From assembly GCA_016763135.1 (NCBI GenBank), contig JAESUI010000045.1, forward strand, positions 1 to 32,915: 32,915 nt of DNA. The letters run 5' to 3'. Source of the DNA: Flavobacteriales bacterium. GTDB lineage: Bacteria; Bacteroidota; Bacteroidia; Flavobacteriales_E; Vicingaceae. Positions within the stretch are counted from its first letter, which is position 1. Each line of letters opens with the position of its first letter. This document shows positions 7,935 through 22,470 of this stretch, piece by piece. Below the pieces are notes generated by a model. It worked only from the letters and a program-made list of their open reading frames with translations. It ran no database searches and was not told where the DNA came from. The position numbers were made by a program, and so were the translations under genes.

Positions 7935-8815
7935 TTATAATTTCAAGATTAAAGTTAACCCAGTTGCTCCTTTCAAATTATATGGATTTAAGGATAATTT
8001 TGAATTTATTTTAGTTTTGTGTAATTCAGGTACCAACCATCCTACTAATGCTCCAACAGCAAAACCCGTTTTACATCGGTGGGGAAATGCTTTCCACTTT
8101 TGACCCTCAAATAACCCATAGTGGCAGGTAACCCCAAGCCAAAAGTGTACAATCCAATTTTAACTCCATTTTTCATATTGGGATGATAATCGCTGATTAC
8201 CTTAGTTATAAAAATTGAAAAAGCGGCTGTTTGTGTAGTATGCCCAGAGAAAAATGATAACCTTGCTGTACTGCTAGTTCTTTCATTAATGGAAAATGCA
8301 GAATTGTATGCTTGAGGACGAGAACGATTAAAAATATATTTAGCATTAAACGATAATCCGTTTGAAATGGTTAAAATCTCTAAGCTCATAATTAATAAAG
8401 GGCCAACATCTTTACGAGTATGATGGTTACTCATAAAAAATAGAGTTGGAAGTGCAAGCCCGGTGTATAGAATGACATTACTCGCAGTTTGATCTGCATT
8501 GGAGTGATAGTTAACTGCTCTACGATCAAACGAATTAATTTTATTGGCATCTAAAGCATTTAATTCTTCTACTGTAAATTGAGGCTTTTCATTAATTGAT
8601 TTGATATACAAACCTGAACTTAGTAACCCCAAGCCTGTTAAAAAGAAAGGCACTTCTTTTTTTAAATTCACTTGATAAGGATCTAAGTGAATGTGCTTTG
8701 AGTCGCTCTTGCAAAGATTACATTGACTACCTATAGGATTAGCAACTTGACCAATTAAAGTAATTGAAAAACTTAAGCCAACTATTAAACAAATATATTT
8801 CTTAATCAGACTCAT
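7935..8815 (-). pseudogene. PAP2-family (type 2 phosphatidic acid phosphatase-like) membrane phosphatase with a 1-nt frameshift
   Basis: PAP2 motifs: KYIFNRSRP, SFFSGHT, LRVKSGKHFPTDV. After DV the annotated frame ends (KRVLLLEH*). The -1 frame continues with the expected GFAVGALVGWLVPELHKTKINSKLSLNPYNLKGATGLTLILKL* to 7935. The shift lies at A-run 8069-8072 (minus strand gtaaaacggg). Confidence 0.8.
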
Positions 8816-8880
8816 AGATTTGGGACAATTTCTTCTCCATCAATCTCAATTACAGGATTCTTTACTTCAATTATTTTCAT
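8812..8880 (-). CDS. 22-aa small ORF translationally coupled on both sides
   Basis: [22 protein letters not shown]. Its ATG overlaps the ACP stop (ATGA, 8880-8877) and its TGA overlaps the PAP2 ATG (ATGA, 8815-8812). Confidence 0.35.
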
Positions 8881-9113
8881 AAGTTATTATTTTGTTTATT
8901 CTCAATATAAAAAAGTGCATCACTAATGCTTACTATCTTATAAAGATCCTCATCAGGAATAGTAATATTAAAAGCATCTTCAAATGCCATAATTAATTCA
9001 ATTATATCAAGAGAATCTGCCCCTAAGTCCTTGTTAAATTCAGCTTCGTTTACAACTAAATTTTCATCTACCGCAAGCTTATCTACGATAATTGATTTTA
9101 TTCTTTCGTCCAT
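8877..9113 (-). CDS. acyl carrier protein (stand-alone, accessory)
   Basis: 78 aa with the phosphopantetheine attachment motif [18 protein letters not shown]. Confidence 0.88.
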
Positions 9114-9124
9114 ATAATTTACAT

Positions 9125-9721
9125 TTAAAATGTTTTTTTAATCCATAGTACAAGAAGGCCATTAAACATCATCTCCTTTATTTTATACGATGACGGTGGT
9201 GAAAAATCATGTGAACAATAAGTAACCAACCTAGTGCCCAAAGGCATTTTTAGCAGTTGACTATATACATAGTTTTCATATAAACGGTATTTGGTCTTTG
9301 AAAATGAAATATTCTGATCTATCCATTGACATGAGGCTATTTGCTCACAAAACGGATTAAAGTAATAGAATGCATCATATTTTCTAAAGTCACTATTTAA
9401 TATATTGGCATTGATAAATCTAACATTGTTTAATTCGAAATTCTTTAATAATTTATTTGCTTCAGAAACCAAATTCCCCCTCTTTTCTATGCCTGTGAAT
9501 TTTGAGTTTGACAAAATTCCACCAACTATACAAAACTTACCGGCTCCAGAACCTATGTCAAGAATGTTTGCCCCAGAATAGGCACCTAACCACTCTATAG
9601 CTACTTCTATTATTTCAATTGGAGTCCAGTGAATATTTGATAAACTTCTTATATATTCAGGGTATAATTTATCAAAATCCTGATTTGAAATATCGCTATA
9701 TAATTCTAACTGTTTCATCAA
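9125..9721 (-). CDS. class I SAM-dependent methyltransferase
   Basis: Motif [12 protein letters not shown], post-I GIE, and an acidic/aromatic motif II region ([10 protein letters not shown]). Confidence 0.8.
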
Positions 9722-9733
9722 TCTATTAATTCA

Positions 9734-10483
9734 CTATTTATTTTCGAATTTGTATCCAATTGTAATTTGTAAAGTGTGATTGTTTTCAAAATGAATCCCG
9801 TCTCCTTTTTTAACTACTTGATTCATATAACCTAATTGTATACTTCCATTAGGAATTATTTTATAACCTAACCCTCCATACAACCAATTTTGATTTAAGG
9901 AAGTTGGCATAACACTTTTATCATCTAAATTTATCCAAAGCTCATTAAAAGCCTTGCTAAACAGCTTTCCATTTTTAGAGATAGTCCTACTTAAAGTAAG
10001 TCTGTATCTAAATCGTTGAGCGTATTTATTGCCCTCAATTGTTGGTGCTAAACCGGAAGCATCATAAACGGTTTGTCCGATAAATCGTTGTTCAAAACGG
10101 TAACGATGACTTATTTTCAATTTTCCTGATTGATGTTTTAAGGTGATTTGCTCCCATATATTATTTTCAGGAGTAATAATGGCGATGGGTTGATTACCAT
10201 AAGGGCAAGATCTGATATAGGTATAACCTAGAGAAAGATCAATAGAAGAATTTAATTTGTAATTCAAGGCAGGCCTAAAAAGGAATTGTTGCCAATCTTC
10301 AAGACCATTTGCACGTCTTAAGTGGAGTTCAGATGAGAAATACCAATTCTCATTAACTGAGTATTTATTGGTGTTACTCCACCATGTATTAAGACTAGAA
10401 TCAACGATTCTTTTTTGAGACCATACCCGAATTGTCATTATTAACAATAAAAAAATAAGAATTGGGAATTTATTTAATTTCAT
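9734..10483 (-). CDS. predicted outer-membrane beta-barrel protein (DUF2490-like)
   Basis: Signal peptide, alternating amphipathic strands rich in Y/W/R, and a terminal strand LQITIGYKF. The family name is from memory only. Confidence 0.6.
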   Translation of the reverse strand: MKLNKFPILIFLLLIMTIRVWSQKRIVDSSLNTWWSNTNKYSVNENWYFSSELHLRRANGLEDWQQFLFRPALNYKLNSSIDLSLGYTYIRSCPYGNQPIAIITPENNIWEQITLKHQSGKLKISHRYRFEQRFIGQTVYDASGLAPTIEGNKYAQRFRYRLTLSRTISKNGKLFSKAFNELWINLDDKSVMPTSLNQNWLYGGLGYKIIPNGSIQLGYMNQVVKKGDGIHFENNHTLQITIGYKFENK

Positions 10484-10496
10484 TTTGTTGGAATTA

Positions 10497-10982
10497 TTAG
10501 TTGATTAAATTTACTTCCTGTACTTGGTAATTTTTAACTTCATATATAATGATTCCCTTTATATTTATTTCAAATTTACATCTATTATTTTGGAATAAAC
10601 TCATCCTAGAAATTTTAAGAATTTGATCTATAAGATCAATCCAAACTTTTTGTTTTTTAGGAGTTGTTGGAATCCTCTCTTTATCTGATTTCTTCCTAAG
10701 AATATTCAATTGTTTTTTTGCACTGGTCCAGTTTGACTTTTCCAATTGATGGAGCTGCATACTTTCATTGTTATCGCAGTTGTAATGACCGACTACTAAA
10801 ATTTCTGAGGCACCTTCTTCATAGACGCAATATTTAAAATAATCTAAATCAAGATTACTTGATGATTGGATAATGTTTCCAAAAAAGGTGCAAAGAATAA
10901 TGTTAGGGTTCTCAATAAAACTATTTACGAAATAGGAATCATTACAACTAATTACAATTGTTTTTTTTTTTGATATTTTCAT
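10497..10982 (-). CDS. degenerate beta-carbonic-anhydrase-like protein, 161 aa
   Basis: ISCNDSY aligns with CSDSR (Cys13, Asp15, Arg replaced by Tyr) and VVGHYNCD with CGHYGCG (His66, Cys69). FFGNI aligns with RNIAN, and IKGIIIYEVKN with HGWVYSLKD. It is about 50 aa shorter than Can. Confidence 0.65.
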   Translation of the reverse strand: MKISKKKTIVISCNDSYFVNSFIENPNIILCTFFGNIIQSSSNLDLDYFKYCVYEEGASEILVVGHYNCDNNESMQLHQLEKSNWTSAKKQLNILRKKSDKERIPTTPKKQKVWIDLIDQILKISRMSLFQNNRCKFEINIKGIIIYEVKNYQVQEVNLIN

Positions 10983-11012
10983 TTACATATTGTTCAAAGC
11001 ACACCTTCATTT

Positions 11013-12308
11013 TTACAGTATTGAATTAATTAGTAAAAAGGTGAGTATTCCAGAGATATAACCTATAAAAGCATAGAATGTAATATTCTTTAAATACCAG
11101 ATAAAATCTATTTTTAAAATTCCCATTATGGCAACTCCTGCCGCAGAACCAATAATTAAAATACTACCACCTGTACCTGCACAATAAGCTAAAAGTTCCC
11201 AGAATAAGTGATTTTCTGGATATACATTTAAGTCATACATTCCAATTGCTCCAGCAACTAAAGGCACATTATCTACTATAGAGGAGAAAACTCCAATTAA
11301 AGAATTAATAATCCAGATATTACCTATTTTATCATCTAAAATCAACGCTAAATCACTTAAATGACCTGCCACTTGCAAAGCTGAAACAGCTAAAAGAATT
11401 CCTAAAAAGAATAAAATACTTGGTGTATCTATTTTTTTTAATACTCCCACAATAGAGTATGTTGCTTTTAAACCTGAAGGTTTTCTTCGATGAATAATTT
11501 CTGTAACAATCCATAAAACACTTAGCCCTAATAATATCCCCATAAATGGAGGTAAATGGGTTGTTGTTTTAAATACAGGCACAAATAATAAAGAACCTAT
11601 TCCAAAATACATAACTGTTTTCTTCTCCCATTCTGGAATATTTTCATTTTTCTTTTCCTTTTCGATGCTTTTCAATTTCCCCTTCATCTTAAATGAAATT
11701 AAAACAAGAGGAACTAATAAACACATCAAACTAGGTAAGAATAACTTTAGAACAATATTTGCGGCTGTTACTTGTCCACCTATCCACAACATAATAGTGG
11801 TAACATCTCCAATAGGAGACCATGCTCCTCCTGCATTTGCAGCTAAAATTACCATGCCAGCAAATAACCATAGGTCTTTTGTTCTATGAATGAGTTTTCT
11901 CAAAAGAGCAGCCATTATTATGGATGTCGTTAAATTGTCAAGAGCAGCACTCATAAAAAACGTTACAAAACACAAAATCCAAAGTAATTTTGTCTTATTC
12001 AAAGTGGTTATTTTACTTGTTATAATATCAAAACCACCATGTACATCTACCAACTCTACAAGAGTCATTGCCCCTAATAGGAAAAACAGGATTCCAGAAA
12101 TTTCCCCCAAGTGATGCATTAGACTTTCTTCAACTAATAGAGTAGGGTCTTCTATAGCAGACAAAATAGTTTGACTACCTATAATTAATAATGTCCAAAC
12201 GATAACCGCTGTTAATAATGCAGAAGCTGCTTTATCTATTCTCAAGGGATGCTCTAAAGCAATAGCTGTGTATCCCAAGACAAAAATGAATATCATTAAA
12301 AAGTACAT
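11013..12308 (-). CDS. nhaD: NhaD-type Na+/H+ antiporter (ArsB/NhaD permease superfamily)
   Basis: 431 aa, polytopic. The N-terminus GYTAIALEHPLRIDKAASALL and overall architecture match NhaD as I recall it. Confidence 0.75.
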   Translation of the reverse strand: MYFLMIFIFVLGYTAIALEHPLRIDKAASALLTAVIVWTLLIIGSQTILSAIEDPTLLVEESLMHHLGEISGILFFLLGAMTLVELVDVHGGFDIITSKITTLNKTKLLWILCFVTFFMSAALDNLTTSIIMAALLRKLIHRTKDLWLFAGMVILAANAGGAWSPIGDVTTIMLWIGGQVTAANIVLKLFLPSLMCLLVPLVLISFKMKGKLKSIEKEKKNENIPEWEKKTVMYFGIGSLLFVPVFKTTTHLPPFMGILLGLSVLWIVTEIIHRRKPSGLKATYSIVGVLKKIDTPSILFFLGILLAVSALQVAGHLSDLALILDDKIGNIWIINSLIGVFSSIVDNVPLVAGAIGMYDLNVYPENHLFWELLAYCAGTGGSILIIGSAAGVAIMGILKIDFIWYLKNITFYAFIGYISGILTFLLINSIL

Positions 12309-12348
12309 CTCTTTATTTTTAATTAAACTGATTTTTCATACTCAAACT

Positions 12349-14541
12349 CTAAACAGTAACTAAAGCCTTATTTAAACATTTTATCAATCCTTTTCCTTTG
12401 TTTAAAAGCTCATGAATTTCTTTTGTTTCTAAAACTTTATGAGATTGATGTAACATTAAATCTGTACCATTACTCACCATATAATAATCTAAATTAGATT
12501 CAAAGAAGTTAAGGATTTCAGGGGTAAAGAATTTTCTTACTTCGTTTTCATTCAATCCTTTTAGCACGTAATTATTAGAGAATTTTTTGTGGGTATCGAA
12601 ATCAATATCTCTTGCACCAACTACTTCTGCTATTTTATCTACGAAAGTTTCCTTTTCCATATAAAATTTAGGAATTGGAGATAATCCTGAAATTTTTAAA
12701 ACAGTTGTTGATTCTAAATCAGTTGTAGTTTCAGCACCTTCTTGTGTTTTAATGTCTGCAATACTAAATAGTGCGTTATTATTTCTTGTGCTGATGATAT
12801 TCTTTATTGAAATTATTTTTTTACGAATAGTCAATGTATAAAAATCCCAACCTTCATTATCTGCTATTTTATTTTGAAATTCAAATTCATTGGATTGAGC
12901 AAAAGACAAAAGCTCTAGTGTACGAGAATCAATGTTGATATTTTTCAATTTAGCTTTAGAGTTCTTATCTCTTGCTGCTAATGGATGATTAGATACTGGA
13001 TGTAGATTTTCGACATTCTCTATATGTACATTTTTATTATTTTGTTTTGCCAACCTAGCGTAATCTTCTAAATGCTCCATAACTGTATGGTCAACAAAAT
13101 TAACCGCTGAGAAATCTAAAATTAACTCATCATAATTTTGAACGCCACTATCCATTTTCTTTTTTAGTGATAAGTAATTAGAAAATATTTGAGAACCTTT
13201 TAAGTAAATAATTTTACTACTTCCTTTGTGTTCTACGCTCAAATTAGATTTAAATAGTTCATTAATTTTTGTGCCTTTGAATAGAATTAATACGTACTTG
13301 AATAGAATTCCGATAACAATACCTATAATTAAATCTGTTGCTAAAACAGCGACAAGTGTTACCACAAAAATTTCAAACTCCATTAATCCAATTTTATACA
13401 TGTGCTTAAATTCTTTTGGAGAAGCTAATCTAAATCCAGTAAAAACAAGCATGGCAGCTAAAGCAGGAACAGGAATCATTTCAATTATAAAAACCCCTAT
13501 CAACACATAAATTAATAAGAATAATCCATGAGAAAAATTAGCCCACTGTGTTTTAGCTCCGTTATTTACATTGGCTGATGAACGTACAATTTCTGAAATC
13601 ATTGGTAATCCTCCCAATGCCGCAGCCAAGGAAGATCCCGCTCCCATTGCTATTAAATCTTTATCTAAATTGGAACTCCTTTTATAAGGGTCTAGGCTAT
13701 CCACAGCTTTTGCACTCAATAAACTTTCAATGGCAGAAACCAATGCAACTCCTATAACTGCAATCCAAAAAGGAGACGTTCCTATTTTTTCAAAAGAGGG
13801 TAGTTTTAAACCTCCTCCGCCTAATAAGCCTCCATCTAAATTTACCATTTTTAGGTTTTCATGACCTAAGTACATTGCTAATGGAATGGTAAAGATTAGT
13901 ACCCACATTGGAGCAGGAACCATTTTGATGATTTTACTTTTAATAATAGGGTGTATTATCAGTGTAGCTAAAGCAACAAGTGTTACTATAATAGCACTCA
14001 AATTCGTTTCGTGCATTAAATAATGTGGAATTTCTGATGCAACTTCTAAAATTTCACCTTTTGGTCCTTTTGCTCCTATGGCCGGAAAAACTTGTTTAAT
14101 TATAATAATAACACCAATAGCTGCAAGCATTCCGTGAACTGCTGCGGAAGGAAAATAATCTCCAACCTTCCCTACTTTTAGTAGTCCAAAAACAGCCATA
14201 ATTAATCCTCCAATTACAATTGCTCCTAAAGCATGAGGATACCCTGCAAAGCCACTTTCTATTCCTGCACCTCCCATACTTTCTGCTGCACCTAAAGTAA
14301 TTACAATTAACCCTGCGGCAGGGCCACTAATGGTTACAAATGTTCCGCCAATTCTTGATGCCAATACTCCACCAACAATAGCTGTAATTATACCTGCTAA
14401 TGGCGGTACTCCAGATGCTAAGGCAATACCTAAACAAAGTGGTAATGCAATAAGTGATACACTAAACCCTGAAATGATGTCGTCTTTAAAATGGGCTTTA
14501 AGTCCTGCAAACCCTGTTTTTGGTATGTTGTTATTTTTCAT
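12349..14541 (-). CDS. SulP-family anion (possibly bicarbonate) transporter with STAS domain and an extra ~200-aa C-terminal domain
   Basis: SulP N-terminal signature ([30 protein letters not shown]) and a second-repeat motif (GGLPMISEIVRSSANVNNGAKTQ). STAS-like region (IIYLKGSQIFSNY...LILDFSAVNFVDHTVMEHLEDY). Residues ~525-730 are unassigned. Confidence 0.9.
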   Translation of the reverse strand: MKNNNIPKTGFAGLKAHFKDDIISGFSVSLIALPLCLGIALASGVPPLAGIITAIVGGVLASRIGGTFVTISGPAAGLIVITLGAAESMGGAGIESGFAGYPHALGAIVIGGLIMAVFGLLKVGKVGDYFPSAAVHGMLAAIGVIIIIKQVFPAIGAKGPKGEILEVASEIPHYLMHETNLSAIIVTLVALATLIIHPIIKSKIIKMVPAPMWVLIFTIPLAMYLGHENLKMVNLDGGLLGGGGLKLPSFEKIGTSPFWIAVIGVALVSAIESLLSAKAVDSLDPYKRSSNLDKDLIAMGAGSSLAAALGGLPMISEIVRSSANVNNGAKTQWANFSHGLFLLIYVLIGVFIIEMIPVPALAAMLVFTGFRLASPKEFKHMYKIGLMEFEIFVVTLVAVLATDLIIGIVIGILFKYVLILFKGTKINELFKSNLSVEHKGSSKIIYLKGSQIFSNYLSLKKKMDSGVQNYDELILDFSAVNFVDHTVMEHLEDYARLAKQNNKNVHIENVENLHPVSNHPLAARDKNSKAKLKNINIDSRTLELLSFAQSNEFEFQNKIADNEGWDFYTLTIRKKIISIKNIISTRNNNALFSIADIKTQEGAETTTDLESTTVLKISGLSPIPKFYMEKETFVDKIAEVVGARDIDFDTHKKFSNNYVLKGLNENEVRKFFTPEILNFFESNLDYYMVSNGTDLMLHQSHKVLETKEIHELLNKGKGLIKCLNKALVTV

Positions 14542-14587
14542 TTTAATGTATTTTAATTATTGTGTTATATTTTTTTTAGATAGTTAT

Positions 14588-16456
14588 TTATGATGAACGA
14601 TATGCAAAGTCATGATAACCGCTTATATGCTGCCCTAAGAACAATCTTGAATAAATTCTAAAAACGACTAAGCCGTCTAATGCTAGACAAAGTGTTAATA
14701 AGACTAATAGTGGAAATTGATTTTCATGTATATGACCAAGCAATAAATCTTCTCCAATAAAAGTTGGAGTTATTGGAAATCCAGATATACCTAAACATGC
14801 TAATATGAAAATGAATGCTAACCCAGAGAATTCATAATTGTGACCTTGAAATTGATTAAGGCTGATGTCTTTTCCTTTTTTCTTGAGTTTATAAATTACG
14901 AATAGACCAACACCCCCAGAAACAAGAATACCGCTCAAATAAAGATGTACTTGAGTAAAATCAAACACCTCATTAAAACCAAAAGATAAAGAAAGAAATA
15001 GTTGACTTACAATGATTAACAACCATGCTGTAAGTACCGATTTACGTTTAACAAATGCTTTTAGAATCAAAATAAAACCTAAAAAAGCAAAAAATTCTGG
15101 TAGATAGTTGATTATATTATTGGGAACTATTTCTCTGTGATAAATAGCATATAAGCCAATTAAAAATATAGGCACATAAATGCTAAATGTAATTTTTGGA
15201 GACAATAAATTAATTCTATTTCCTACTTTTTTAAGAGGATTCCATAAAAAATTATACATAAATGTATCGAGGTTAAACTCTTTAATACTTAAAATGTATA
15301 AAGACAATTTTAGTTTATCCCAAAAGGAATCTTTCCCTTGTTGTGCTGGTTGATTAAAATGAAAAAATTGATCGTGAATTTTATAACTTAGAATAGATGG
15401 AGAAATAAGTAATTGATGAGAACGAAGCATTGCATTTCCCATAAAGTGAATCATTGCGAGCCAGTACCAACCAAAAGCAACTTCAATAAACATTAATCCA
15501 ATTTGGGCTAATGAGGAATAGGCAATTTGTGTTTTTATGGTAGATTGTACTTTAGCTGTAGATGATGCTAATAATACAGTTATCAATCCTATTCCTCCTA
15601 TAATAAAATGAAACCAATAGTTACCTTCCCAAAATGGAGATGTACGTATTAAAAGAAAAACACCAATGTGTGCGGACAATGAACCATAAAAAATGGAACT
15701 AGAAGTTGTCGGTCCTTCCATTGCTCTAGGTAACCATGAAGAAAATGGGAACTGAGCAGATTTAACCATTGCTGCCAATAAAAATAATCCAGGTATTAGG
15801 TAGATATAAATTGTTTCATTGATAATGTGATAGTGGGGGCTATGTAATCCATCTAAATCTTTGAAATTAATACTGTAACCAAAATAATGATGACTTAACC
15901 AAATGCCTAACAGCAAAGCAACATCTGCAATTCTATAAACCGAAATTACTTTTAAAGCATTTTTAACTGGGAGATACCTGTCTCGATAAAAACCGATTAG
16001 GAAAAAAGACGTAACACCAAGCACTTCCCAACCGACAAAGAGCGTTTCTAAGTTGCCTGACATCAACACAACTACTAGCCCAAAATAGAAGAATTTAATG
16101 TTGTTAAAAAATCGTTTAAATCCTTTTTCTCTATGGATATAATTTTTACTAAAAACCACAATAATTCCTGTTAAAAATGTTGCCGTCAATAAATAGATTA
16201 AGCTATATCCATCTAACAAAAAACTAATGGTAAAATCTGCTTTTCCTGTATGAAACAATACAGGCCCTTGCATAAAAATGGGTTCAAAACCATCCATTGC
16301 CCAAATGATTGCCATTATAATTAGTGCAATATAATTGACAAATACACTTGTAATTGAAATGCCAAATATGGCTTTTTCGTTCTCATTCGAGAATAAAAAA
16401 CTAATTATTAAAGCCAAAAATGGAGTAGTTAATAATGTATAAAATAAGATGTTCAT
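14588..16456 (-). CDS. dabB: DabB: NuoL/MnhA-like proton-conducting membrane subunit of a DAB/MpsAB inorganic-carbon pump
   Basis: PF00361-type motifs: WEVLGVTSFFLIGF and KSAQFPFSSWLPRAMEGPTTSSSIFYGSLSAHIGVFLLIR. It starts 16 nt downstream of the DUF2309 gene. Confidence 0.85.
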   Translation of the reverse strand: MNILFYTLLTTPFLALIISFLFSNENEKAIFGISITSVFVNYIALIIMAIIWAMDGFEPIFMQGPVLFHTGKADFTISFLLDGYSLIYLLTATFLTGIIVVFSKNYIHREKGFKRFFNNIKFFYFGLVVVLMSGNLETLFVGWEVLGVTSFFLIGFYRDRYLPVKNALKVISVYRIADVALLLGIWLSHHYFGYSINFKDLDGLHSPHYHIINETIYIYLIPGLFLLAAMVKSAQFPFSSWLPRAMEGPTTSSSIFYGSLSAHIGVFLLIRTSPFWEGNYWFHFIIGGIGLITVLLASSTAKVQSTIKTQIAYSSLAQIGLMFIEVAFGWYWLAMIHFMGNAMLRSHQLLISPSILSYKIHDQFFHFNQPAQQGKDSFWDKLKLSLYILSIKEFNLDTFMYNFLWNPLKKVGNRINLLSPKITFSIYVPIFLIGLYAIYHREIVPNNIINYLPEFFAFLGFILILKAFVKRKSVLTAWLLIIVSQLFLSLSFGFNEVFDFTQVHLYLSGILVSGGVGLFVIYKLKKKGKDISLNQFQGHNYEFSGLAFIFILACLGISGFPITPTFIGEDLLLGHIHENQFPLLVLLTLCLALDGLVVFRIYSRLFLGQHISGYHDFAYRSS

Positions 16457-16472
16457 TTTTTTTTTAATTTAA

Positions 16473-19001
16473 CTATGGATAAACATAAGTTGGTATATTT
16501 TCTAAAGTTGCATCAAGGATATGATTGGTTTTCATTTCACTTCCCTCTGCAATTACTTTATTGATGTCACCTGTTTTTAATGCCTCTTTTAGTGGTGTAT
16601 AAAGTTGAAATTTTCCATTATAAAAAAGGTAAAGATTATCGTCATCAGGAGATATAGCTACCAAGTGTATCCATCCTTTATCAAACCAATCATACATCTC
16701 TTGTGAAGATTTAATTATTTTTAAAATAATTTCAGGTTTCTGTTCTATCATCATTAATAATCTAACAGGATCATGATTTTCAATCATTTGCAACGGAAGT
16801 CCTGTACGAATATCACCATCACTACTGTTGGTTACTCCTATTAACCCTGTAACATTATGAGGGAGTTTTGTTCCTGCCCCCATTTTTTCAATGTCCATTC
16901 GTGAGAAATAATATTCTAAATTAATACCTCCACAAACATTTGGTAATGGTCCTAAAACCTGTTCTAATACTTTCCCGTCAGGATCTTTTTTGCAATCGTA
17001 GGATTGTAAAAAAGCTCTTCTATCTAAAAACAAACCTTTGGTACTCTCTCTCCTTCCAATATGACATAAAGCATTGGTTCCATGTCCTAATTCAGGTCTA
17101 GGTTCAAAATAAGAAACAGAGCGTTTTTTTATCTCATTTCTAATGTGTTTGATGTCTTTTTTAATGTTGATAGAAGCAAACCTTCTTGCTCTTTCTTTAG
17201 CGTTTAAATCGAGTGCCGTTTCAAATGTTTCTTGGTGTATTGAATGTGCTTTCTTATTCTCATTTGTTAATATTTCTTCATCATAAAAAGCCACTTCATC
17301 ACTAGCCGTATCATGCATTGCTGCAACAAATTGTGTTGTTTCTGGAATATTCAGTCCTTTTGTTTCTAAAGCAATTCTAACTGCTGGGTGATTTGCCATA
17401 AAAGCGAATACTCTAGCATTTACAGCTCCAGGTCTTCCGCTACAAGCTCCACAATCATGTGCTCCATGATGCGGATTGTTTGCACTACTACTACCATGAG
17501 CCACCACATATACTATTGAAGCAAAGTTTTCTGTTAAACCAATGCCTGTTAGCATAGATTCAACAATATCAATCATTTCAGAAATTTGATAACCTATCTG
17601 TAATCCATTCTCAATGTCTTTAGAGTCTTTATTTTCAATTAACAGTTTACCATTAATATCCATGTGAGAAAATGCATTGGAAATATCTGCTTGCATTTTT
17701 GGTCGAGCTAAATCTAACGTCATTTTTAAACCTGCCAACAACCCAATTGTAAACGTTGAAAGAATTCCTTGAAAAAAAGAATGTGTTTTTTTATTATGGA
17801 AAATTTCGTGCTTCCTAGTTTGTTTCATCTCAATTTCTTTGATAAGATGCTTTGGAGTTAGTGCAACAGGTGCATTTTTATCATAAAATTTACCACCAAA
17901 AGGTTGAAAATAAATAGCTGCACCATAATATCCTGGAGCACCTAATGTTTCACATTGTTTGTCCACATCCTCCAAATGTCTTCTGTAAGAACATTCTCTA
18001 TCATCCACACAAAACATAGCCTGAAAACTTACATCTGTACTTTTTGGTTTCTTTTTATTCTTAACAAGAAAGTCAACACCTGCAAGAACATCATCGTAGT
18101 AATCCCACTCAAAAGCTTCTTGCCATAATTGTAATATTTCTTCTAATTCAGTATGTTTAACCTTTGATAAATAATCAATCGGTTTTTTTGTAAAATCTTG
18201 AGCTAGAGGCTGCCATTTCTTACCCAACACATTATCAAGGGCATCAATTTCCAATAGCAGCTCAAGGAGTATTAAATCTTTAAATTGCACTTTCTTTTTA
18301 TAAAAAATGGTGTCAGGATTGTCTTCAATAACGCTAAACATCCCACTCCATCCTTTGTGTGAATATTGTTGGTCAAATAAATAATTAGAGTAATAATCGG
18401 GATTTCCAACCACTATTTTTAATAAACTTTCAATGGATAGATTTTCTGAGAACAGTAATTCTTTGGCTTTTTTTGTTTTGAAAAAACTACTAAAGCTGTT
18501 TTTTTCTAATAGCTTAATAGAATTGATAAGTCCTTCTTTTTCAAAAGGAAAATGCCAAATGGCTATTCCTTGGTCTAAAAAACTAGCTATAATTCTAAAC
18601 AACAAAGGTTGAACTAAATTATCGAGGTCTATTTTATATTGAATTTTCCATTGTTTTCTTAATTGACCAACTCTCGGATTATATTTATGCTCATAAGATG
18701 TATTGAGCATTTTATCCATATATGCTTTAACGTTTTTTTTTCCTTTACTTCTTTCAATAACCTGTTCAATAATTTCTTTTTTTATTCTGCTTTGTTGATG
18801 CAGTTTTCGATAATTATTGATATTAAAAGTTACATGAAATCCAAAAATTTCAGAAGCACTAAAAATGCCATCAAAAAATTCTTTATCTTGAAAAGAATGA
18901 AGAGAATTATGGTGTACAAAATCTTTTAAAGTAGCTTGTACTGGTAAGAAGTGTCTTAATTTTTTAAGACATTTATCTTCATTGAAAACGTGATTATTCA
19001 T
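16473..19001 (-). CDS. dabA: DabA: DUF2309-family inorganic-carbon transporter subunit
   Basis: 842 aa cytoplasmic protein paired with a NuoL-like gene. It has the beta-CA-like site MFCVDDRE (Cys331, Asp333, Arg335) and VVAHGSSSANNPHHGAHDCGACSGRPG (His502, Cys517). Confidence 0.85.
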   Translation of the reverse strand: MNNHVFNEDKCLKKLRHFLPVQATLKDFVHHNSLHSFQDKEFFDGIFSASEIFGFHVTFNINNYRKLHQQSRIKKEIIEQVIERSKGKKNVKAYMDKMLNTSYEHKYNPRVGQLRKQWKIQYKIDLDNLVQPLLFRIIASFLDQGIAIWHFPFEKEGLINSIKLLEKNSFSSFFKTKKAKELLFSENLSIESLLKIVVGNPDYYSNYLFDQQYSHKGWSGMFSVIEDNPDTIFYKKKVQFKDLILLELLLEIDALDNVLGKKWQPLAQDFTKKPIDYLSKVKHTELEEILQLWQEAFEWDYYDDVLAGVDFLVKNKKKPKSTDVSFQAMFCVDDRECSYRRHLEDVDKQCETLGAPGYYGAAIYFQPFGGKFYDKNAPVALTPKHLIKEIEMKQTRKHEIFHNKKTHSFFQGILSTFTIGLLAGLKMTLDLARPKMQADISNAFSHMDINGKLLIENKDSKDIENGLQIGYQISEMIDIVESMLTGIGLTENFASIVYVVAHGSSSANNPHHGAHDCGACSGRPGAVNARVFAFMANHPAVRIALETKGLNIPETTQFVAAMHDTASDEVAFYDEEILTNENKKAHSIHQETFETALDLNAKERARRFASINIKKDIKHIRNEIKKRSVSYFEPRPELGHGTNALCHIGRRESTKGLFLDRRAFLQSYDCKKDPDGKVLEQVLGPLPNVCGGINLEYYFSRMDIEKMGAGTKLPHNVTGLIGVTNSSDGDIRTGLPLQMIENHDPVRLLMMIEQKPEIILKIIKSSQEMYDWFDKGWIHLVAISPDDDNLYLFYNGKFQLYTPLKEALKTGDINKVIAEGSEMKTNHILDATLENIPTYVYP

Positions 19002-19075
19002 TAATTTACTTCTTGATTAGATTTATAACTTAGAAAGGGCTTAATAATTCAATCCCTTTTATTAAAGAAATAATC

Positions 19076-19420
19076 TCAAAGAGGTAAATTCAATCGACAA
19101 TAGAGTAAATAGTAAGGAATTTTTAATGTTGAAAGAAGATCATAACCTAGAAATGATCTGACTAATGTGACATCAAGATTATAAAGGTAACTATTTCGAG
19201 CACCAAGGATACTTTGAATAGGGTTACCACTCCCTGCACCATTGTTTTCGTCTGAAAAGGTTAAAAGGTCATTGCAGTAAGTATTTTCATTTTCTTCTAT
19301 TTCCTCTATGAATTCTAACGCATGACCATTTAGGTTAAGTTCAAGGGGGATTCGTTCTGGTGCTACTGCAACCAGAAGCATGAGAACATAAATTAAACAT
19401 ATTTTAGATAGACTTACCAT
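19076..19420 (-). CDS. hypothetical secreted/membrane-anchored protein
   Basis: 114 aa with an N-terminal hydrophobic signal-like segment (ICLIYVLMLLVAVA). I recognise no motif. It lies upstream of dabA on the same strand. Confidence 0.4.
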   Translation of the reverse strand: MVSLSKICLIYVLMLLVAVAPERIPLELNLNGHALEFIEEIEENENTYCNDLLTFSDENNGAGSGNPIQSILGARNSYLYNLDVTLVRSFLGYDLLSTLKIPYYLLYCRLNLPL

Positions 19421-19433
19421 ATAAATATTGAGG

Positions 19434-19441
19434 CAAATGTA
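19434..19441 (-). promoter_or_regulatory. possible -7 box (TAnnTTTG) for the 19420 / dab transcription unit
   Basis: The minus strand reads tacatttg, ending 13 nt upstream of the ATG at 19420. Confidence 0.3.
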
Positions 19442-19505
19442 TTGAATGTTTTAGAAATATTTGATTAATGCTACATTAATATTTAACATTTGTTATATTT
19501 GAAGA

Positions 19506-20198
19506 ATGAATATTTCTGAAAAATTTGACTTTAAAAGTGACCTTTTATATGAATCTCTCAATGATAGCGATATGAAATTGATTGAATCGACTTACGAAAG
19601 ATTAAGCTTTTCAAAAGGAGATAAGATTTTTTATGAGGATGGAATCCCAACTGGGATGTTCCAAATAGTTTCTGGACGAGTAAAAAAATTCAAGACAGTT
19701 TTAGATAAGCAACAGCAGATATTTTATGTCTATGGTAAAAATGATTTTTTCGGATATCACGCTCTTTTATCGAATGAGAGATATCAAGATTCCTGTGAAG
19801 CGATTGAAGATGTTGTAGTGAATTTTATTAGTGCTAAAAATTTTAAAATGTTATTAGACAAGCTCCCTATGTTGAAAGATGCGCTATTGGTAAATATTTC
19901 TCACGAGTTCGGTGTTTTAGCTAATGTTATTGGGATTCTAGCACAGAAGTCATTAATTGTAAGGTTGGGATTATTTTTATTGATATTGCATAAACGATTT
20001 AGGCTAAAGGAGAATTTAAAAAAAGGGATGAATTTTTCGCGCGAAGATTTGGCTAATATTATTGGTACTAGTCGAGAGAGTTTGTCACGGAGTTTAAATG
20101 AGTTAAAAACACTTGACCTTATTTTTGTTAAAGGTCGGTTTATTCAGATCAAAAGTGAAGATCGATTAGAAGAGTTTGTACTGAGTCACACAACATAG
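19506..20198 (+). CDS. Crp/Fnr-family transcriptional regulator
   Basis: cNMP-binding-like beta-roll (FSKGDKIFYEDGIPTGMFQIVSGRVK) and C-terminal HTH (FSREDLANIIGTSRESLSRSLNELK). It is divergent from the dab array. Confidence 0.88.
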   Translation: MNISEKFDFKSDLLYESLNDSDMKLIESTYERLSFSKGDKIFYEDGIPTGMFQIVSGRVKKFKTVLDKQQQIFYVYGKNDFFGYHALLSNERYQDSCEAIEDVVVNFISAKNFKMLLDKLPMLKDALLVNISHEFGVLANVIGILAQKSLIVRLGLFLLILHKRFRLKENLKKGMNFSREDLANIIGTSRESLSRSLNELKTLDLIFVKGRFIQIKSEDRLEEFVLSHTT

Positions 20199-20267: not shown

Positions 20268-21794
20268 ATGAGAGTAAGAGATATATTTATCATTATATCC
20301 ATAATGTTACTGATTACAGTAGCAATAATTGCACAATATTATTTGCCTGTTTTATGGAGTTTAATTGTGATTGCTCCAATTGTATTGATTGGCTATGTTG
20401 ATATTTTTCAAAAAAAGCACACTATAAAAAAGAACTTTCCAGTAGTTGGACATTTCAGGTATATGCTAGAAGCAATTCGTCCAGAAATCATGCAATATTT
20501 TGTGGAAACAGATACTCAAGGAAGACCAATTAATAGGCAGTTTAGGTCCCTAATTTATCAAAGAGCAAAAAAAGTAAATGATACCGTTCCTTTCGGCACA
20601 CAAATGGATGTTTATCAGGCTGGTTACGAATGGTTAGATCATTCAATGTATGCAACATTAGATGATGAATTAGATAAAAACCCAAGAGTAACTGTAGGTG
20701 GTCAAGATTGCAAAAAACCTTATTCCGCAAGCATATTAAATATTTCGGCAATGAGTTATGGCTCGTTGAGTAAAAATGCAGTTTTAGCAATGAATGGAGG
20801 AGCTAAAAAAGGAAAATTTGCTCATAATACAGGGGAAGGATCAATTAGTCCTTTTCATTTAGAGCCAGGAGGGGATTTAATTTGGCAAATCGGAACTGGT
20901 TATTTTGGCTGTAGAAAAGAAGATGGTAGTTTTAGTGAAGGTCTTTTTGAAAAGAATGCAACATTAGAGAGTGTTAAAATGATTGAGATAAAACTTTCAC
21001 AAGGTGCAAAACCGGGACATGGAGGTATTTTGCCTGCTTCAAAAAATACTGAAGAAATTGCAAAAATAAGAGGTGTTAAGCCTCATACTGATGTACATTC
21101 ACCTCCTGGTCATTCTGCTTTTTCTAATGCTTCTGGCTTATTACGTTTTGTTAAAACTTTAAGAGAAAAATCAGGAGGAAAACCGATAGGTTTTAAATTG
21201 TGCGTGGGTAAAAAAGAAGAATTTATAGATATTTGTAAAGCAATGGTTTCATCTGGTATTAAACCCGATTTTATAACGGTTGATGGAGGTGAAGGAGGGA
21301 CAGGGGCAGCTCCAATAGAGTTTTCTAATTCTATAGGAATGCCTTTGAAAGATGGCCTTTCTTTTGTTTACAATACCTTGGTAGGATATGATTTAAAAAA
21401 AGATATTAAAATAATTGCTTCAGGTAAAGTTTTTAGTGGTTTTCATATTGCTCGAACTTTGGCTTTAGGAGCTGATATGGTAAATAGTGCCAGAGCAATG
21501 ATGATGGCAGTAGGTTGTATTCAAGCATTAGAATGTAATACTAACAAATGCCCAGTAGGTGTTGCGACACAGGCGAAATCATTGATGAAAGGCTTAAATG
21601 TAGAAAATAAAACGCAACGAGTAGCTAATTTTCATGAAGAAACAATACATAGTTTTGTAGAGTTGATTGCGGCAGCAGGAATTCAAAAATCATCTAATTT
21701 AGAGCGAAAACACATTAATCGAAGAGTTAGTATGAATTCAGTTTTAAAGTATGATGAAATATTTCCTTATACTGACAAAGGTAGTTTATTATAA
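20268..21794 (+). CDS. FMN-binding glutamate-synthase-related (GltS domain 2-like) protein with N-terminal TM helices
   Basis: Motifs ISAMSYGSLS, KLSQGAKPGHGGILP, ITVDGGEGGTGAAP and CNTNKCPVGVATQ. Confidence 0.88.
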   Translation: MRVRDIFIIISIMLLITVAIIAQYYLPVLWSLIVIAPIVLIGYVDIFQKKHTIKKNFPVVGHFRYMLEAIRPEIMQYFVETDTQGRPINRQFRSLIYQRAKKVNDTVPFGTQMDVYQAGYEWLDHSMYATLDDELDKNPRVTVGGQDCKKPYSASILNISAMSYGSLSKNAVLAMNGGAKKGKFAHNTGEGSISPFHLEPGGDLIWQIGTGYFGCRKEDGSFSEGLFEKNATLESVKMIEIKLSQGAKPGHGGILPASKNTEEIAKIRGVKPHTDVHSPPGHSAFSNASGLLRFVKTLREKSGGKPIGFKLCVGKKEEFIDICKAMVSSGIKPDFITVDGGEGGTGAAPIEFSNSIGMPLKDGLSFVYNTLVGYDLKKDIKIIASGKVFSGFHIARTLALGADMVNSARAMMMAVGCIQALECNTNKCPVGVATQAKSLMKGLNVENKTQRVANFHEETIHSFVELIAAAGIQKSSNLERKHINRRVSMNSVLKYDEIFPYTDKGSLL

Positions 21795-21795
21795 C

Positions 21796-22470
21796 ATGAA
21801 AATATTTAAGTATCAACAATGGCATTTACTTAGTTTAGTCATATTACTAACAATGCTTTTTAATATTGTTAGAATATACCCCAGTATTCTTGAAGGTTCT
21901 TTTTTAGGAATAAGTAGTTCGATGTGGTTTTTAGTAGGAATTTCTTCCCCAATTATACATCAATTGTATGTGCTTCTTATTTGGCGATTAGAATTATATT
22001 ATAAAAGTATCTCTAAATTATTTGGTGAAAATAGTTTTAGTTTTTACAAAACAGGATTCATAATCCTTATCTTTTCTCGATTAGTAAGCATTATCTTATT
22101 GGCAATATCCAACACTAAGACACTTACTATCGATGTATCTCTGTCATACTTAATAACAGGATTATTGGCTATTCCTGCTATCTACTTATTTTATTCCGTT
22201 AAGAAATATTTTGGAATGGATAGAGCTTTTGGAATAGATCATTTTGAACCTGAAGTAACAGCTAAATTACCTTTTGTTAAACGGGGAATATTCAAATATT
22301 CTTCTAATGGAATGTATATTTATGGTTTTTTCATTTTATGGATTCCTTGCCTAATCTTTCAATCAAAAGCTGCATTAATACTTGCTTTATTCAATCATAT
22401 TTACATTTGGGCACATTATTATTTTACAGAGTTACCCGACATAAAAATCATTTATAAAAAAAGGAAATAA
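21796..22470 (+). CDS. polytopic membrane protein, PEMT/ICMT-like methyltransferase family
   Basis: I chose the start at the ATG 1 nt after the upstream stop; the track ORF start at 21751 overlaps the previous gene. C-terminal GIFKYSSNGMYIYGFFILW and HIYIWAHYYFTE resemble the PEMT/ICMT core. Confidence 0.5.
   Translation: MKIFKYQQWHLLSLVILLTMLFNIVRIYPSILEGSFLGISSSMWFLVGISSPIIHQLYVLLIWRLELYYKSISKLFGENSFSFYKTGFIILIFSRLVSIILLAISNTKTLTIDVSLSYLITGLLAIPAIYLFYSVKKYFGMDRAFGIDHFEPEVTAKLPFVKRGIFKYSSNGMYIYGFFILWIPCLIFQSKAALILALFNHIYIWAHYYFTELPDIKIIYKKRK

Follow-up and report, generated by a model that had tools for sequence, protein, structure and literature searches.

The locus studied here carries genes of the DAB and MpsAB type. 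DAB2 is a PMF-coupled vectorial carbonic anhydrase (CA) (PMC13144422), and DAB/MpsAB supplies HCO3- in heterotrophs (PMC6689103; bioRxiv 10.64898/2026.09.08.750065). The original description of MpsAB was of a cation-translocating, membrane-potential system (PMC6689103). In the window, i.e., the whole 32,915-nucleotide stretch of DNA analysed, genes of this type lie in an array that, judging from its sequence, appears to be a real, tightly packed, operon-like module joining a DabAB pump to a SulP anion transporter (Table 1). No description of a DabAB–SulP module was found in the literature searched.

Table 1 Features of the array and its flanks, with window positions.
Feature	Positions	Strand	Evidence
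Can-type beta-CA	6814-7452	+	NF007756 261.5 bits (cutoff 251)
CAL2, degenerate CA-like, 161 aa	7449-7934	+	Pro_CA 23.4 bits, below cutoff 25.7
PAP2 family lipid phosphatase, local neighbour	7935-8815 (window ORF 8045-8815)	-	PF01569 47.9 bits
22-aa ORF, putative coding	8812-8880	-	ATGA overlap with ACP and with PAP2
ACP, local neighbour, 78 aa	8877-9113	-	PP-binding 47.5 bits; NF002148 97 bits (cutoff 71)
SAM-dependent methyltransferase, lineage-specific, 198 aa, TTG start	9125-9721	-	Methyltransf_31 34 bits
DUF2490, signal peptide, putative outer-membrane beta-barrel porin, 249 aa	9734-10483	-	PF10677 163.6 bits
CAL1, short divergent beta-CA-like protein, lineage-specific, 161 aa	10497-10982	-	Pro_CA 30.3 bits (cutoff 25.7)
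NhaD-type Na+/H+ antiporter, accessory, 431 aa	11013-12308	-	NF038006 158 bits (cutoff 80)
SulP, whole ORF, 730 aa	12349-14541	-	PF00916 + STAS
SulP C-terminal extension, aa 528-730, alpha/beta, TtfA-like fold	12352-12960	-	AF2 model
SulP membrane and STAS domains, aa 1-527	12961-14541	-	PF00916 176.6 bits, STAS 26.9 bits
DabB, NuoL/MrpA-like cation-conducting membrane subunit, 622 aa	14588-16456	-	PF00361 140.6 bits, PF00662 42.3 bits
DabA (DUF2309/PF10070), beta-CA-like catalytic subunit, 842 aa	16473-19001	-	PF10070 676 bits
114-aa first gene: N-terminal signal/TM segment, acidic middle, C-terminal motif YYLLYCRLNLPL	19076-19420	-	Conserved position
Candidate Bacteroidota-type -7 promoter element TACATTTG	19434-19441	-	Pattern search; 13 nt upstream of 114-aa ORF ATG
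Matching motif TATATTTG	19494-19501	+	Precedes divergent Crp gene
Divergent Crp/Fnr-family regulator, cNMP-binding + HTH	19506-20198	+	PF00027 60 bits, PF13545 49 bits

DabA and DabB

Profile searches bore out all family assignments of the sequence-only reading of this DNA. The match of the 842-aa protein to PF10070, singled out beforehand as the test of the DabA call, spans profile positions 2-747 of 747. DabA aligns to DabA2 of PDB 9rd0 (E = 6e-62), and its residues C331, D333, H502 and C517 fall on the DabA2 zinc-site residues C351, D353, H524 and C539, so that all four are kept. The 622-aa protein, proposed to be a PF00361 subunit, does belong to that family, and it also matches NuoL (4e-37) and DabB2 (9rd0_B; 6e-30). 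DabB lies downstream of DabA in all related loci, without exception. Given this family membership and the zinc-site residues, DabAB would, by analogy with H. neapolitanus DAB2 and S. aureus MpsAB, hydrate cytoplasmic CO2 to HCO3-, powered by cation influx through DabB.

Architecture of the array

Ten minus-strand ORFs had been reported to run from 19001 to 7935, and the re-derived coordinates agree, as do the gaps of 16, 46, 40, 30, 13, 12 and 11 nt, in order from the dabA end, and the two 4-nt ATGA overlaps. The 114-aa ORF upstream of dabA is a conserved gene, which brings the array to 11 genes and moves its start to 19420. To place the end at 7935, PAP2 has to be read across a one-base indel in an A-run near 8065, where the gene is frameshifted in the window. 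In L020, a metagenome scaffold 99.98% identical to the window, PAP2 is intact (293 aa) and ends at the equivalent of 7935.

A terminator search located no terminator-like site in any intergenic gap of the array, in line with the lack of a convincing internal terminator noted earlier; the four sites in total, all intragenic, compare with 5.8 expected by chance. On the minus strand, TACATTTG is the sole Bacteroidota-type -7 motif that the pattern search placed at an intergenic position of the array, although such motifs are no more frequent in the window than chance predicts and the element is therefore weak evidence on its own. Taken with the spacing and the terminator search, it suggests that transcription would start ahead of the small ORF at 19420 and run at least through the DUF2490 and methyltransferase genes, probably continuing through PAP2 in this genome. 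The operon-like architecture is as it had been described.

Conservation across loci

Approximately 55 related loci keep a core consisting of the small acidic signal-peptide protein, DabA, DabB, a SulP of one clade and, usually, DUF2490. They are found in Flavobacteriia, Cytophagia-like and Saprospiraceae genomes as well as in metagenomes, and represent marine and aquatic Bacteroidota. A survey of PF10070 neighbourhoods, suggested by the sequence-only reading, reveals recurrent SulP linkage in four core orders: DabA-DabB-SulP(long), SulP-DabA-DabB, SulP-DUF2490-DabA-DabB, and DabA-DabB-SulP(short). SulP adjoins DabAB in 19/19 reference-genome loci with enough flank and in many metagenome loci. 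The metagenome sample was selected in part by a STAS motif, so SulP-linked loci are over-represented in it. In 11 loci, including that of the isolate Lewinella cohaerens DSM 23179, SulP and DabA form one uninterrupted ORF in which the STAS domain is followed by a 25-40 aa linker and the DabA N-terminus. The topology of the fusion is consistent, with the STAS domain and DabA both cytoplasmic. Together, the conserved adjacency and the single-ORF fusions uphold the proposed tie between a DabAB CA-type pump and a SulP transporter, and recurrence of the core gene set across dozens of species, in several orders, is far beyond chance. A sister DabAB clade is entirely without SulP, and SulP is therefore not required for DAB function.

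Two core members had been missed in the sequence-only reading, namely DUF2490 and the conserved small protein, with a signal peptide, that is encoded first in the operon. The 114-aa protein has no Pfam or NCBIfam match, and its ORF is also called by independent gene callers. In >25 loci, covering every SulP-linked layout, the cluster begins with a positional homologue of 100-143 aa that shares the three features listed in Table 1; none was detected in the SulP-less DabAB clade. DUF2490, classed in TCDB as putative porin family 1.B.81 (PMC4827864), comes after the cluster in most loci, and in layout c (SulP-DUF2490-DabA-DabB) it separates SulP from DabA. The small protein co-varies with the SulP-linked clade, as does DUF2490. 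Going by synteny only, DUF2490 would let the anion cross the outer membrane and the small acidic protein would be a periplasm-facing accessory subunit.

SulP transporter and its C-terminal domain

The SulP belongs to a clade with the TM10 motif PMISE[IV][VA]RSSAN. Its nearest solved relative is the TM domain of the bicarbonate transporter BicA (6ki1, 1e-27). The suggestion that it is a BicA-like Na+/HCO3- symporter is not supported: the protein scores 143.7 bits against the BicA equivalog (cutoff 880), the BicA Na+/HCO3- site motif GAGATMGTV is replaced by PMISEIVRS in TM10, and Arg320 aligns at the position of the Na+-coordinating Gly304 of BicA. TM10 carries this Arg plus a conserved Glu, and with the motif replaced as well the coupling would not be of the BicA type. 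The transporter domain is strongly conserved (~66% mean column identity, 47 orthologues).

A further feature missed earlier is the C-terminal domain of SulP. This extension has no Pfam match, and its AF2 model (pLDDT 85, pTM 0.82) has a single significant PDB match, TtfA (6t84; E = 2.5e-4, TM 0.62/0.70). TtfA itself assists a PMF-driven transporter as an accessory factor. The profile of the domain collects 3383 representatives, among them SulP C-termini as well as stand-alone TM-anchored proteins of ~220 aa. The TtfA-like domain tracks DAB linkage, being present in 12/12 DAB-linked long SulPs and 0/4 unlinked close paralogs. The roles assigned here to DUF2490, the small protein and this domain are putative, being drawn from synteny and fold.

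Accessory, local and flanking genes

The NhaD family call stands (NF038006, Table 1; 358 bits against TIGR00775, cutoff 577), but not its place as an integral part, as just 4 loci (the window, L013, L014 and L046) have NhaD in the vicinity of DabAB. In this organism, its presence suggests Na+ coupling of one step. In CAL1, residues C13, D15, H66 and C69 are conserved, but Tyr takes the place of the Arg in the Asp-Arg dyad. Only 5 homologues of CAL1 were recovered, and 5/5 contexts examined are inside dab clusters. The methyltransferase occupies the same position in L005, L012, L022, L039 and L112. Fusion of the operon to a lipid/ACP module did not hold up: ACP, the 22-aa ORF and PAP2 are beside the cluster in 0 of ~110 related loci, and they are local neighbours, not parts of the system. 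The 22-aa ORF was not called by the gene caller on L020.

The flanking Crp/Fnr regulator, which lacks an Fnr-type N-terminal Cys cluster, was confirmed divergently upstream of the cluster here and is found likewise in L004, L006, L007, L014, L023 and L049. In L046 it is upstream with other genes between it and dabA, and in L010 it is on the same strand. On the other flank, Can and CAL2 are convergent to the array (6814-7934) and overlap by 4 nt. They had been read as a CA pair, of which Can is a real member (261.5 bits vs 251), whereas CAL2 is degenerate, with a Pro_CA score of 23.4 and the zinc-ligand His changed to Asp. Many loci have a beta-CA in the neighbourhood of the cluster; the pairing of beta-CA with a CA-like protein, there of 157 aa, recurs in L023, a CAL2 homologue directly follows DabB in L016, and a SulP-beta-CA fusion also occurs in the vicinity of the cluster.

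Function of the module

[quoted passage not shown] At its centre would be a DAB-type energy-coupled CO2 hydratase, tied in function, and probably also physically, to an anion carrier of the SulP family. Conserved linkage and the DabA fusion suggest that SulP moves HCO3- over the inner membrane, most likely inward. SulP would be kept beside DabA by covalent fusion in other lineages, and in the lineage of the window the TtfA-like domain would dock it there. The resulting HCO3- would feed pyruvate, PEP and acetyl-CoA carboxylases, carbamoyl-phosphate synthase (CPS) and PurK, a use established for heterotrophs in general. Energy-coupled hydration is useful only for an HCO3- pool above equilibrium, which favours an importer over an exporter as its partner. 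Counting against DIC acquisition, SulP fails the BicA equivalog and is without the BicA binding-site motif. HCO3- as substrate and the direction of transport are proposals here. In addition, a canonical cytoplasmic Can adjoins the array and would dissipate the HCO3- pool if co-expressed.

That SulP is not a bicarbonate carrier seems unlikely. It could instead move another anion (sulfate, C4-dicarboxylate or other), or mainly regulate or sense, gating DabAB via its STAS and TtfA-like domains. Its DauA, generic SulP and BicA scores (162.6, 146.2 and 143.7 bits, respectively) are indeed similar and all far below cutoff, and unlinked close paralogs with an identical TM10 motif occupy unrelated contexts, so the substrate of the clade need not be HCO3-. 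A regulatory role is in keeping with STAS domains, which are known regulatory modules. Precedent comes from E. coli DauA, a signal transducer that acts by interacting with DctA (PMC5703999). Set against this explanation are the DabA fusion, the co-clustering with beta-CA and the SulP-beta-CA fusion, which tie SulP to CO2/HCO3- chemistry, and the conservation of the transporter domain would be unexpected for a pure sensor.

Rather unlikely, in our assessment, is acid-loading pH/ion homeostasis, which can be likened to the SLC26/CA systems of animal epithelia. DabAB would produce H+ and HCO3- from metabolic CO2 and also let H+ in, SulP would export HCO3- by anion exchange, and NhaD would swap Na+ out and H+ in, such that protons are retained in a mildly alkaline, saline habitat. 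Cl-/HCO3- exchangers are reported to have Arg at the BicA Gly304 position (PMC13588710), as this SulP does, the first description of MpsAB as a cation translocator fits, and the porin and periplasmic protein are compatible with flux either way. NhaD is inside the array of the window and adjoins dabA in L046, but its presence in only 4 loci speaks against this explanation. Moreover, an exporter as sink makes energy coupling of the hydratase pointless, as a plain CA would suffice, and the characterised DAB and MpsAB systems all serve DIC supply. Incidental juxtaposition through compact-genome packing, with no shared function beyond DabA-DabB, is very improbable. Tight co-directional spacing is common in Bacteroidota, and the tail (ACP, 22-aa ORF and PAP2) is specific to the window. 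For the core genes, however, this explanation is already contradicted by their retention across families and classes, both in four arrangements and as a fusion, and by the confinement of the CAL1 family to dab clusters.

The recurring DabAB-SulP pairing points to an undescribed carbon-handling machine in Bacteroidota thought to be heterotrophic.

Organization and boundaries of the array

The ten consecutive minus-strand ORFs that the sequence-only reading had described as one tight co-directional array were recovered with the same spacing (intergenic gaps of 16, 46, 40, 30, 13, 12 and 11 nt), dabB beginning 16 nt downstream of dabA, and the 22-aa ORF shares an ATGA overlap with its neighbour on each side. 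An end of the array at 7935 holds for the equivalent position of L020, an ENA metagenome scaffold that is 99.98% identical to the window and carries an intact PAP2 gene of 293 aa, but it holds in the window itself only if PAP2 is read across a single-base indel near 8065, in an A-run at ~8060-8070 (-), which otherwise truncates the protein. Because PAP2 is intact in so similar a scaffold, the frameshift is taken to be an assembly or strain variant.

Features of the array and its immediate flanks (window coordinates)
Feature	Length	Coordinates	Strand	Basis
Crp/Fnr-family regulator		19506-20198	+	
Small ORF		19076-19420	-	
DabA	842 aa	16473-19001	-	ORF reading
DabB	622 aa	14588-16456	-	ORF reading
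SulP	730 aa	12349-14541	-	ORF reading
NhaD	431 aa	11013-12308	-	ORF reading
CAL1, CA-like protein	161 aa	10497-10982	-	ORF reading
DUF2490 protein	249 aa	9734-10483	-	ORF reading
SAM methyltransferase	198 aa	9125-9721	-	ORF reading
ACP	78 aa	8877-9113	-	ORF reading
22-aa ORF	22 aa	8812-8880	-	ORF reading
PAP2		8045-8815	-	ORF reading
CAL2, degenerate CA-like protein		7449-7934	+	
Can-type beta-CA		6814-7452	+	

In keeping with the earlier description, no terminator was found in any intergenic gap of the array; a hairpin scan gave four candidates, all intragenic, against 5.8 expected. A sigma-70 promoter scan left the intergenic gaps empty, and since the sigma-70 model is inapplicable to Bacteroidota, we searched instead for the TAnnTTTG motif, whose window-wide count is not above chance. 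The small-ORF ATG is preceded, at a distance of 13 nt, by a candidate Bacteroidota -7 element, TACATTTG, and the operon start was therefore placed there. Rfam searches returned nothing at gathering score across the whole window and nothing at E <= 1 across 7800-19600, so that by Rfam a known riboswitch or leader is predicted to be absent. Between the small ORF and dabA, a spacer of 74 nt, 19002-19075 (-), contains an imperfect hairpin, AAAGGG-N14-CCCTTT, without a T-tract or an Rfam match. We also considered recent transfer revealed by a compositional anomaly and rejected it: GC is even along the array (0.29-0.35) and similar to that of the remaining window.

The DabA-DabB pair

Searches against Pfam and NCBIfam bore out the family calls made from sequence, those of the SAM methyltransferase, ACP and PAP2 included. 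The 842-aa protein matches PF10070/DUF2309 at 676.2 bits over profile positions 2-747 of 747, and the 622-aa protein matches PF00361 at 140.6 bits, as well as PF00662. DabB matches NuoL and also DabB2 (9rd0_B) at 6e-30. DabA is a distant relative of DabA2 (213 bits over 650 residues), and its C331, D333, H502 and C517 align with the zinc-site residues C351, D353, H524 and C539 of the latter (9rd0_A).

It is established that DAB/MpsAB systems are two-protein CO2-to-bicarbonate pumps and that they are present in heterotrophs; the published phylogeny includes Bacteroidetes (PMC6689103). The window pair resembles the known members (H. neapolitanus DabA-DabB, S. aureus MpsAB and B. subtilis NdhF-MpsB) in the adjacency of its PF10070 and PF00361 genes and in its retained zinc-site residues. 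Unlike them, it sits in a larger conserved unit with SulP, a putative porin and a small signal-peptide protein, and in this unit fusion of SulP to DabA is possible, whereas the reported fusions are of DabA to DabB only. The DAB operon of B. subtilis includes canC, which encodes a beta-CA (bioRxiv 10.64898/2026.09.08.750065).

SulP is not of the BicA type

The 730-aa protein is a SulP, as first called, with a PF00916 membrane domain and a C-terminal STAS domain (PF01740). Modelled with AF2, it resembles SLC26 structures and BicA 6ki1 (TMt 0.80-0.81), and its closest solved relative is the BicA membrane domain, 6ki1 (1e-27). The comparison with BicA that had been drawn from sequence does not extend to function-level models: the protein scores 143.7 bits with NF050096 against a cutoff of 880, and the DauA (162.6) and generic SulP (146.2) models score it much as the BicA model does. 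In TM10 of BicA, GAGATMGTV, the Ala and Thr touch HCO3-/metal and Gly304 touches Na+ (PMC13588710). The corresponding segment of the window SulP is PMISEIVRS: the Ala and Thr give way to E317 and I318, and Gly304 to R320. Arg at this last position is a mark of Cl-/HCO3- exchangers and inactivates BicA2 in E. coli (PMC13588710). Membership in BicA is ruled out by the equivalog score and the TM10 motif, and with the site replaced and the equivalog failed, a BicA-type Na+/HCO3- symport is unsupported.

Every DAB-linked SulP falls in one clade, whose signature in TM10 is PMISE[IV][VA]RSSAN; Glu317 is invariant, and of 120 members of the clade, 116 carry this motif. The window holds a second SulP gene of another clade, at 31496-32915 (+), with the TM10 motif PITQVIVRSSAN. 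It has an in-frame TAA at 32099-32101, past which the frame runs on unbroken to the window end, indicating a nonsense mutation, a pseudogene or a sequencing error.

A TtfA-like extension of SulP

The 200-residue extension that follows the STAS domain, residues 528-730, has no Pfam match. With the full-length SulP model, SLC26 matches swamped the fold search, and a model of the extension alone was needed (pLDDT 85, pTM 0.82). In the PDB, this model has one significant neighbour, TtfA, 6t84 (E = 2.5e-4, TM 0.62/0.70), an accessory factor of the PMF-driven trehalose-monomycolate transporter MmpL3 (PDB 6t84). Sequence identity is just 12%, and the likeness is one of fold that does not imply a link to mycolate transport. 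A word-index homology search with the extension returned a single fragment, and an exhaustive profile search was required; it gave 3383 cluster representatives, in which the domain occurs at the C-terminus of SulPs and in stand-alone proteins of ~220 aa with a TM anchor. Like TtfA, the stand-alone relatives have a soluble domain preceded by an N-terminal TM anchor, whereas in the window the domain is joined to a SulP/STAS protein. The genomic context of P0194, one of the stand-alone proteins, was uninformative, its contigs being ~1.2 kb.

SulPs with the extension are DAB-linked at 12 of the 12 loci examined, compared with none of four close short-form paralogs with an identical TM10 motif. Because the extension tracks DAB linkage in this way, the modelled domain fits a role as a docking domain that would replace covalent fusion.

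Conservation and fusion of the SulP-DabAB unit

To place the window among its relatives, we compared it with loci from reference genomes and metagenomes (labelled L). A DabA scan in which each GTDB species was represented by one genome gave 19 loci, with Maribacter antarcticus, Psychroserpens burtonensis, Lewinella cohaerens, Fluviicola and Saprospiraceae as named sources. Cultured carriers of the cluster include Maribacter antarcticus DSM 21422, Psychroserpens burtonensis DSM 12212 and Tenacibaculum aquimarinum. The sample name of the window, TULL18-1, and the NORP MAGs among its closest relatives hint at the North Pond subseafloor aquifer as a possible origin of the data. When the window proteins were mapped onto the 19 loci, SulP adjoined DabAB wherever the flank was long enough, in agreement with the link drawn earlier, and DUF2490 was present in most. 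Metagenome loci came from exact-protein look-ups and a metagenome scan in which one of the two patterns was a STAS motif, so that sample proportions are tilted towards SulP-linked loci.

Four layouts recur: (a) the window type, small ORF-DabA-DabB-SulP(long)-DUF2490, where long denotes a SulP with the extension; (b) small ORF-SulP(short)-DabA-DabB-DUF2490; (c) SulP-DUF2490-DabA-DabB; and (d) DabA-DabB-SulP(short). In 11 loci of layout b, SulP and DabA form one uninterrupted ORF of ~1390-1400 aa, in which the STAS end, HPLAAR, is followed by a linker of 25-40 residues and the DabA N-terminus, LKHYLPAQAALKDFVHHNSLH. The fusion is not an assembly artefact, because one of its carriers, Lewinella cohaerens DSM 23179, is an isolate genome. 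In the window itself, SulP and DabA are unfused: each has its own gene, and dabB separates the two. The core is the small ORF, DabA, DabB and SulP, usually with DUF2490.

A sister clade comprises ~25 loci, drawn chiefly from metagenomes of soil and rhizosphere, none of which has a SulP gene within 6 kb; its DabA and DabB are ~54% and ~40% identical, respectively, to those of the window. No DUF2490 occurs within 6 kb in the listed loci (L047, L051, L053-56, L067, L073, L082-83, L094, L097-98, L101, L103 and others), and no small upstream ORF is found in the five loci checked, L047, L053 and L067 among them. The absence of SulP from this clade indicates that SulP is a clade-specific rather than a universal DAB partner. 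In a large group of aquatic Bacteroidota, DabAB is always accompanied by this particular SulP.

In L112 (7653-8978) and L113 (5297-6643), the DAB-linked SulPs are just 441-448 aa with no STAS match recorded, a third, shortened form of the partner. L029 carries a SulP-beta-CA fusion of 743 aa (11790-14021, PF00916 and PF00484) and a separate beta-CA (10496-11143), both less than 3 kb downstream of a cluster with the order small ORF-DabA-DabB-SulP(long), giving a dense island of DIC genes. L002, L003 and L017 come from MAGs labelled Verrucomicrobiota, and their DabA, 76% identical to that of the window, together with a Bacteroidota-type layout points to mis-binning or lateral transfer.

Small ORF and DUF2490

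The small ORF is without a family match. Its positional homologues, of ~100-143 aa, recur across layouts and share an N-terminal signal/TM segment, an acidic middle and a C-terminal motif that follows the pattern (R/K)xY[IL]L[FY]xxLK[LI]xC. The 249-aa protein belongs to DUF2490 (PF10677, 163.6 bits), and its translation has an N-terminal hydrophobic leader; a PDB sequence search returned only spurious weak matches. TCDB ranks DUF2490 as a putative porin, TC 1.B.81, a pore function not being established for the family (PMC4827864).

Lineage-specific genes and flanks

Identification of the 431-aa protein as NhaD is upheld by NF038006 (158.1 bits against a cutoff of 80), although it falls under the stricter TIGR00775 (358.5 against 577.1). 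Its proposed place as an integral part of the system is not, since the only loci with NhaD close to DabAB are the window, L013, L014 and L046. The last of these is a second case of NhaD joined directly to dabAB: NhaD-DabA-DabB-beta-CA run on one strand (4457-11047), with NhaD directly preceding dabA and a Crp-family gene upstream.

CAL1 is CA-like in its Pro_CA match (30.3 against 25.7) and in its invariant C13, H66 and C69, but it lacks the Asp-Arg dyad of a CA, with Tyr in place of Arg. The motif, CNDSY in CAL1, keeps the Asp and has Tyr for Arg in all six family members (CxDSY, not CxDxR). NCBIfam gave no match to CAL1, and matches to beta-CA sequences in the PDB were marginal (E about 0.2). 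Just five homologues were found, and all five of their contexts, when examined, lay inside dab clusters. The methyltransferase, like CAL1 a lineage-specific member, is also found in L005, L012, L022, L039 and L112.

The lipid/ACP module suggested as part of the locus has no counterpart elsewhere: ACP, the 22-aa ORF and PAP2 join the cluster in no related locus, and module membership of ACP/PAP2 was rejected on this absence. In E. coli, the STAS domain of the SulP protein YchM/DauA binds ACP, and the complex was taken to tie HCO3- supply to fatty-acid synthesis (Babu et al. 2010, cited in PMC3340395), a precedent that serves here as no more than a lead. The window is similar in that an ACP gene lies four genes downstream of SulP, but ACP is conserved beside the cluster in no related locus, and the association of ACP with SulP in the window is most likely positional.

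Of the flanking CA pair described earlier, one member is a true Can-type beta-CA (NF007756, 261.5 bits against 251; CSDSR and HYGCGG motifs), whereas the other, CAL2, is below the Pfam cutoff and has Asp in place of the zinc-ligand His. The Can-type beta-CA is an unusually conserved neighbour, with 80-87% identity in L009, L010, L012, L013 and L039 as against 63-83% for DabA. On the other side, the Crp/Fnr-family gene is followed by a PF01645 glutamate-synthase-domain FMN protein and then a PEMT-like membrane methyltransferase (20268-22470 +); a PF01645 gene, 68% identical, also occurs upstream of dabA in L043 (535-2058). Near the window start, a 331-aa ORF at 1973-2968 (-) is a putative IS110-type transposase by the look of its translation.

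Discussion

Overall, the DabAB-SulP core of the earlier interpretation stands, whereas BicA symport, the lipid/ACP module and an integral NhaD do not. The array is probably a DIC acquisition module in which SulP is coupled to DabAB. DabAB would perform vectorial CO2 hydration, SulP would carry HCO3- in a manner coupled to DabAB, DUF2490 as a putative porin might offer outer-membrane passage for HCO3-, and the small protein may be an envelope accessory. The genes could also be read as a pH/Na+ homeostasis module that holds protons, with SulP as an HCO3- exporter; import is favoured, because energy-coupled hydration pays only with an HCO3- pool above equilibrium, and we regard the export reading as quite unlikely.

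SulP might instead carry another anion or act as a regulatory partner, a role for which DauA-DctA provides a precedent (PMC5703999), and this we consider unlikely; as a substrate of SulP, HCO3- remains plausible. The tie between SulP and DabAB that had been proposed is borne out by the conserved neighbourhood across loci and by the 11 fusions, and chance juxtaposition, very improbable as an account of the array, is tenable only for its tail. Beyond the coupled acquisition module that we prefer, we tentatively raise the possibility that SulP belongs to a variant DAB as its third, integral subunit. SulP, DabA and DabB would then make up a supercomplex, tethered by fusion or by the TtfA-like domain and working with a dedicated DUF2490 channel and the small periplasm-facing acidic subunit, and the whole could be a trans-envelope machine that couples HCO3- transport and vectorial CO2 hydration in organisms that lack RuBisCO. 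If true, such a supercomplex would bear on the dispute as to whether DAB/MpsAB hydrate CO2 or transport bicarbonate; PMF coupling has been argued for DAB (PMC13144422) and Na+/HCO3- cotransport for MpsAB (PMC6689103).

The arrangement is like the cyanobacterial CCM (BicA/SbtA with NDH-1(3/4) CupA/B) in combining an HCO3- carrier with an energy-coupled CO2 converter. It is unlike the CCM in that the window shows no carboxysome or RuBisCO gene and in that the parts are unrelated (DAB, not Cup) or divergent (SulP without the BicA site); the cyanobacterial parts, moreover, are unfused and do not form one operon with a porin. Felce and Saier reportedly described SulP-beta-CA fusion proteins in 2004. 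The SulP-DabA fusions of the window's relatives are similar in having the SulP C-terminus joined to a CA-fold domain, which implies a putative transporter-enzyme pairing, but the partner is an 840-aa energy-coupled DabA that needs DabB rather than a free reversible beta-CA, and the window lineage is unfused, with the TtfA-like domain instead.

In our literature search, the DabAB-SulP unit, the SulP-DabA fusion, the small protein, the membership of DUF2490 and the TtfA-like extension were undescribed; many subscription papers lie outside the corpus, which is therefore incomplete, and the absence of prior description is provisional. What appears to be new is thus the fusion, the conserved SulP partner, the putative outer-membrane channel and the small protein, as partners previously undescribed. 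The comparison offers a clue to the function of the TtfA-like SulP extension, DUF2490, the unannotated small protein and the CAL1 family, and the natural SulP-DabA fusions could ease structural work on a transporter-hydratase complex. To account for anaplerotic fixation, marine flavobacteria have been credited with 'BicA-like' SulP genes together with CA (PMC3595038); one lesson of the present analysis is that SulP genes beside CA genes should not be tagged 'BicA'. The SulP-DAB unit offers a testable hypothesis of how abundant marine and subsurface heterotrophs may obtain HCO3- for anaplerotic (dark) carbon fixation.
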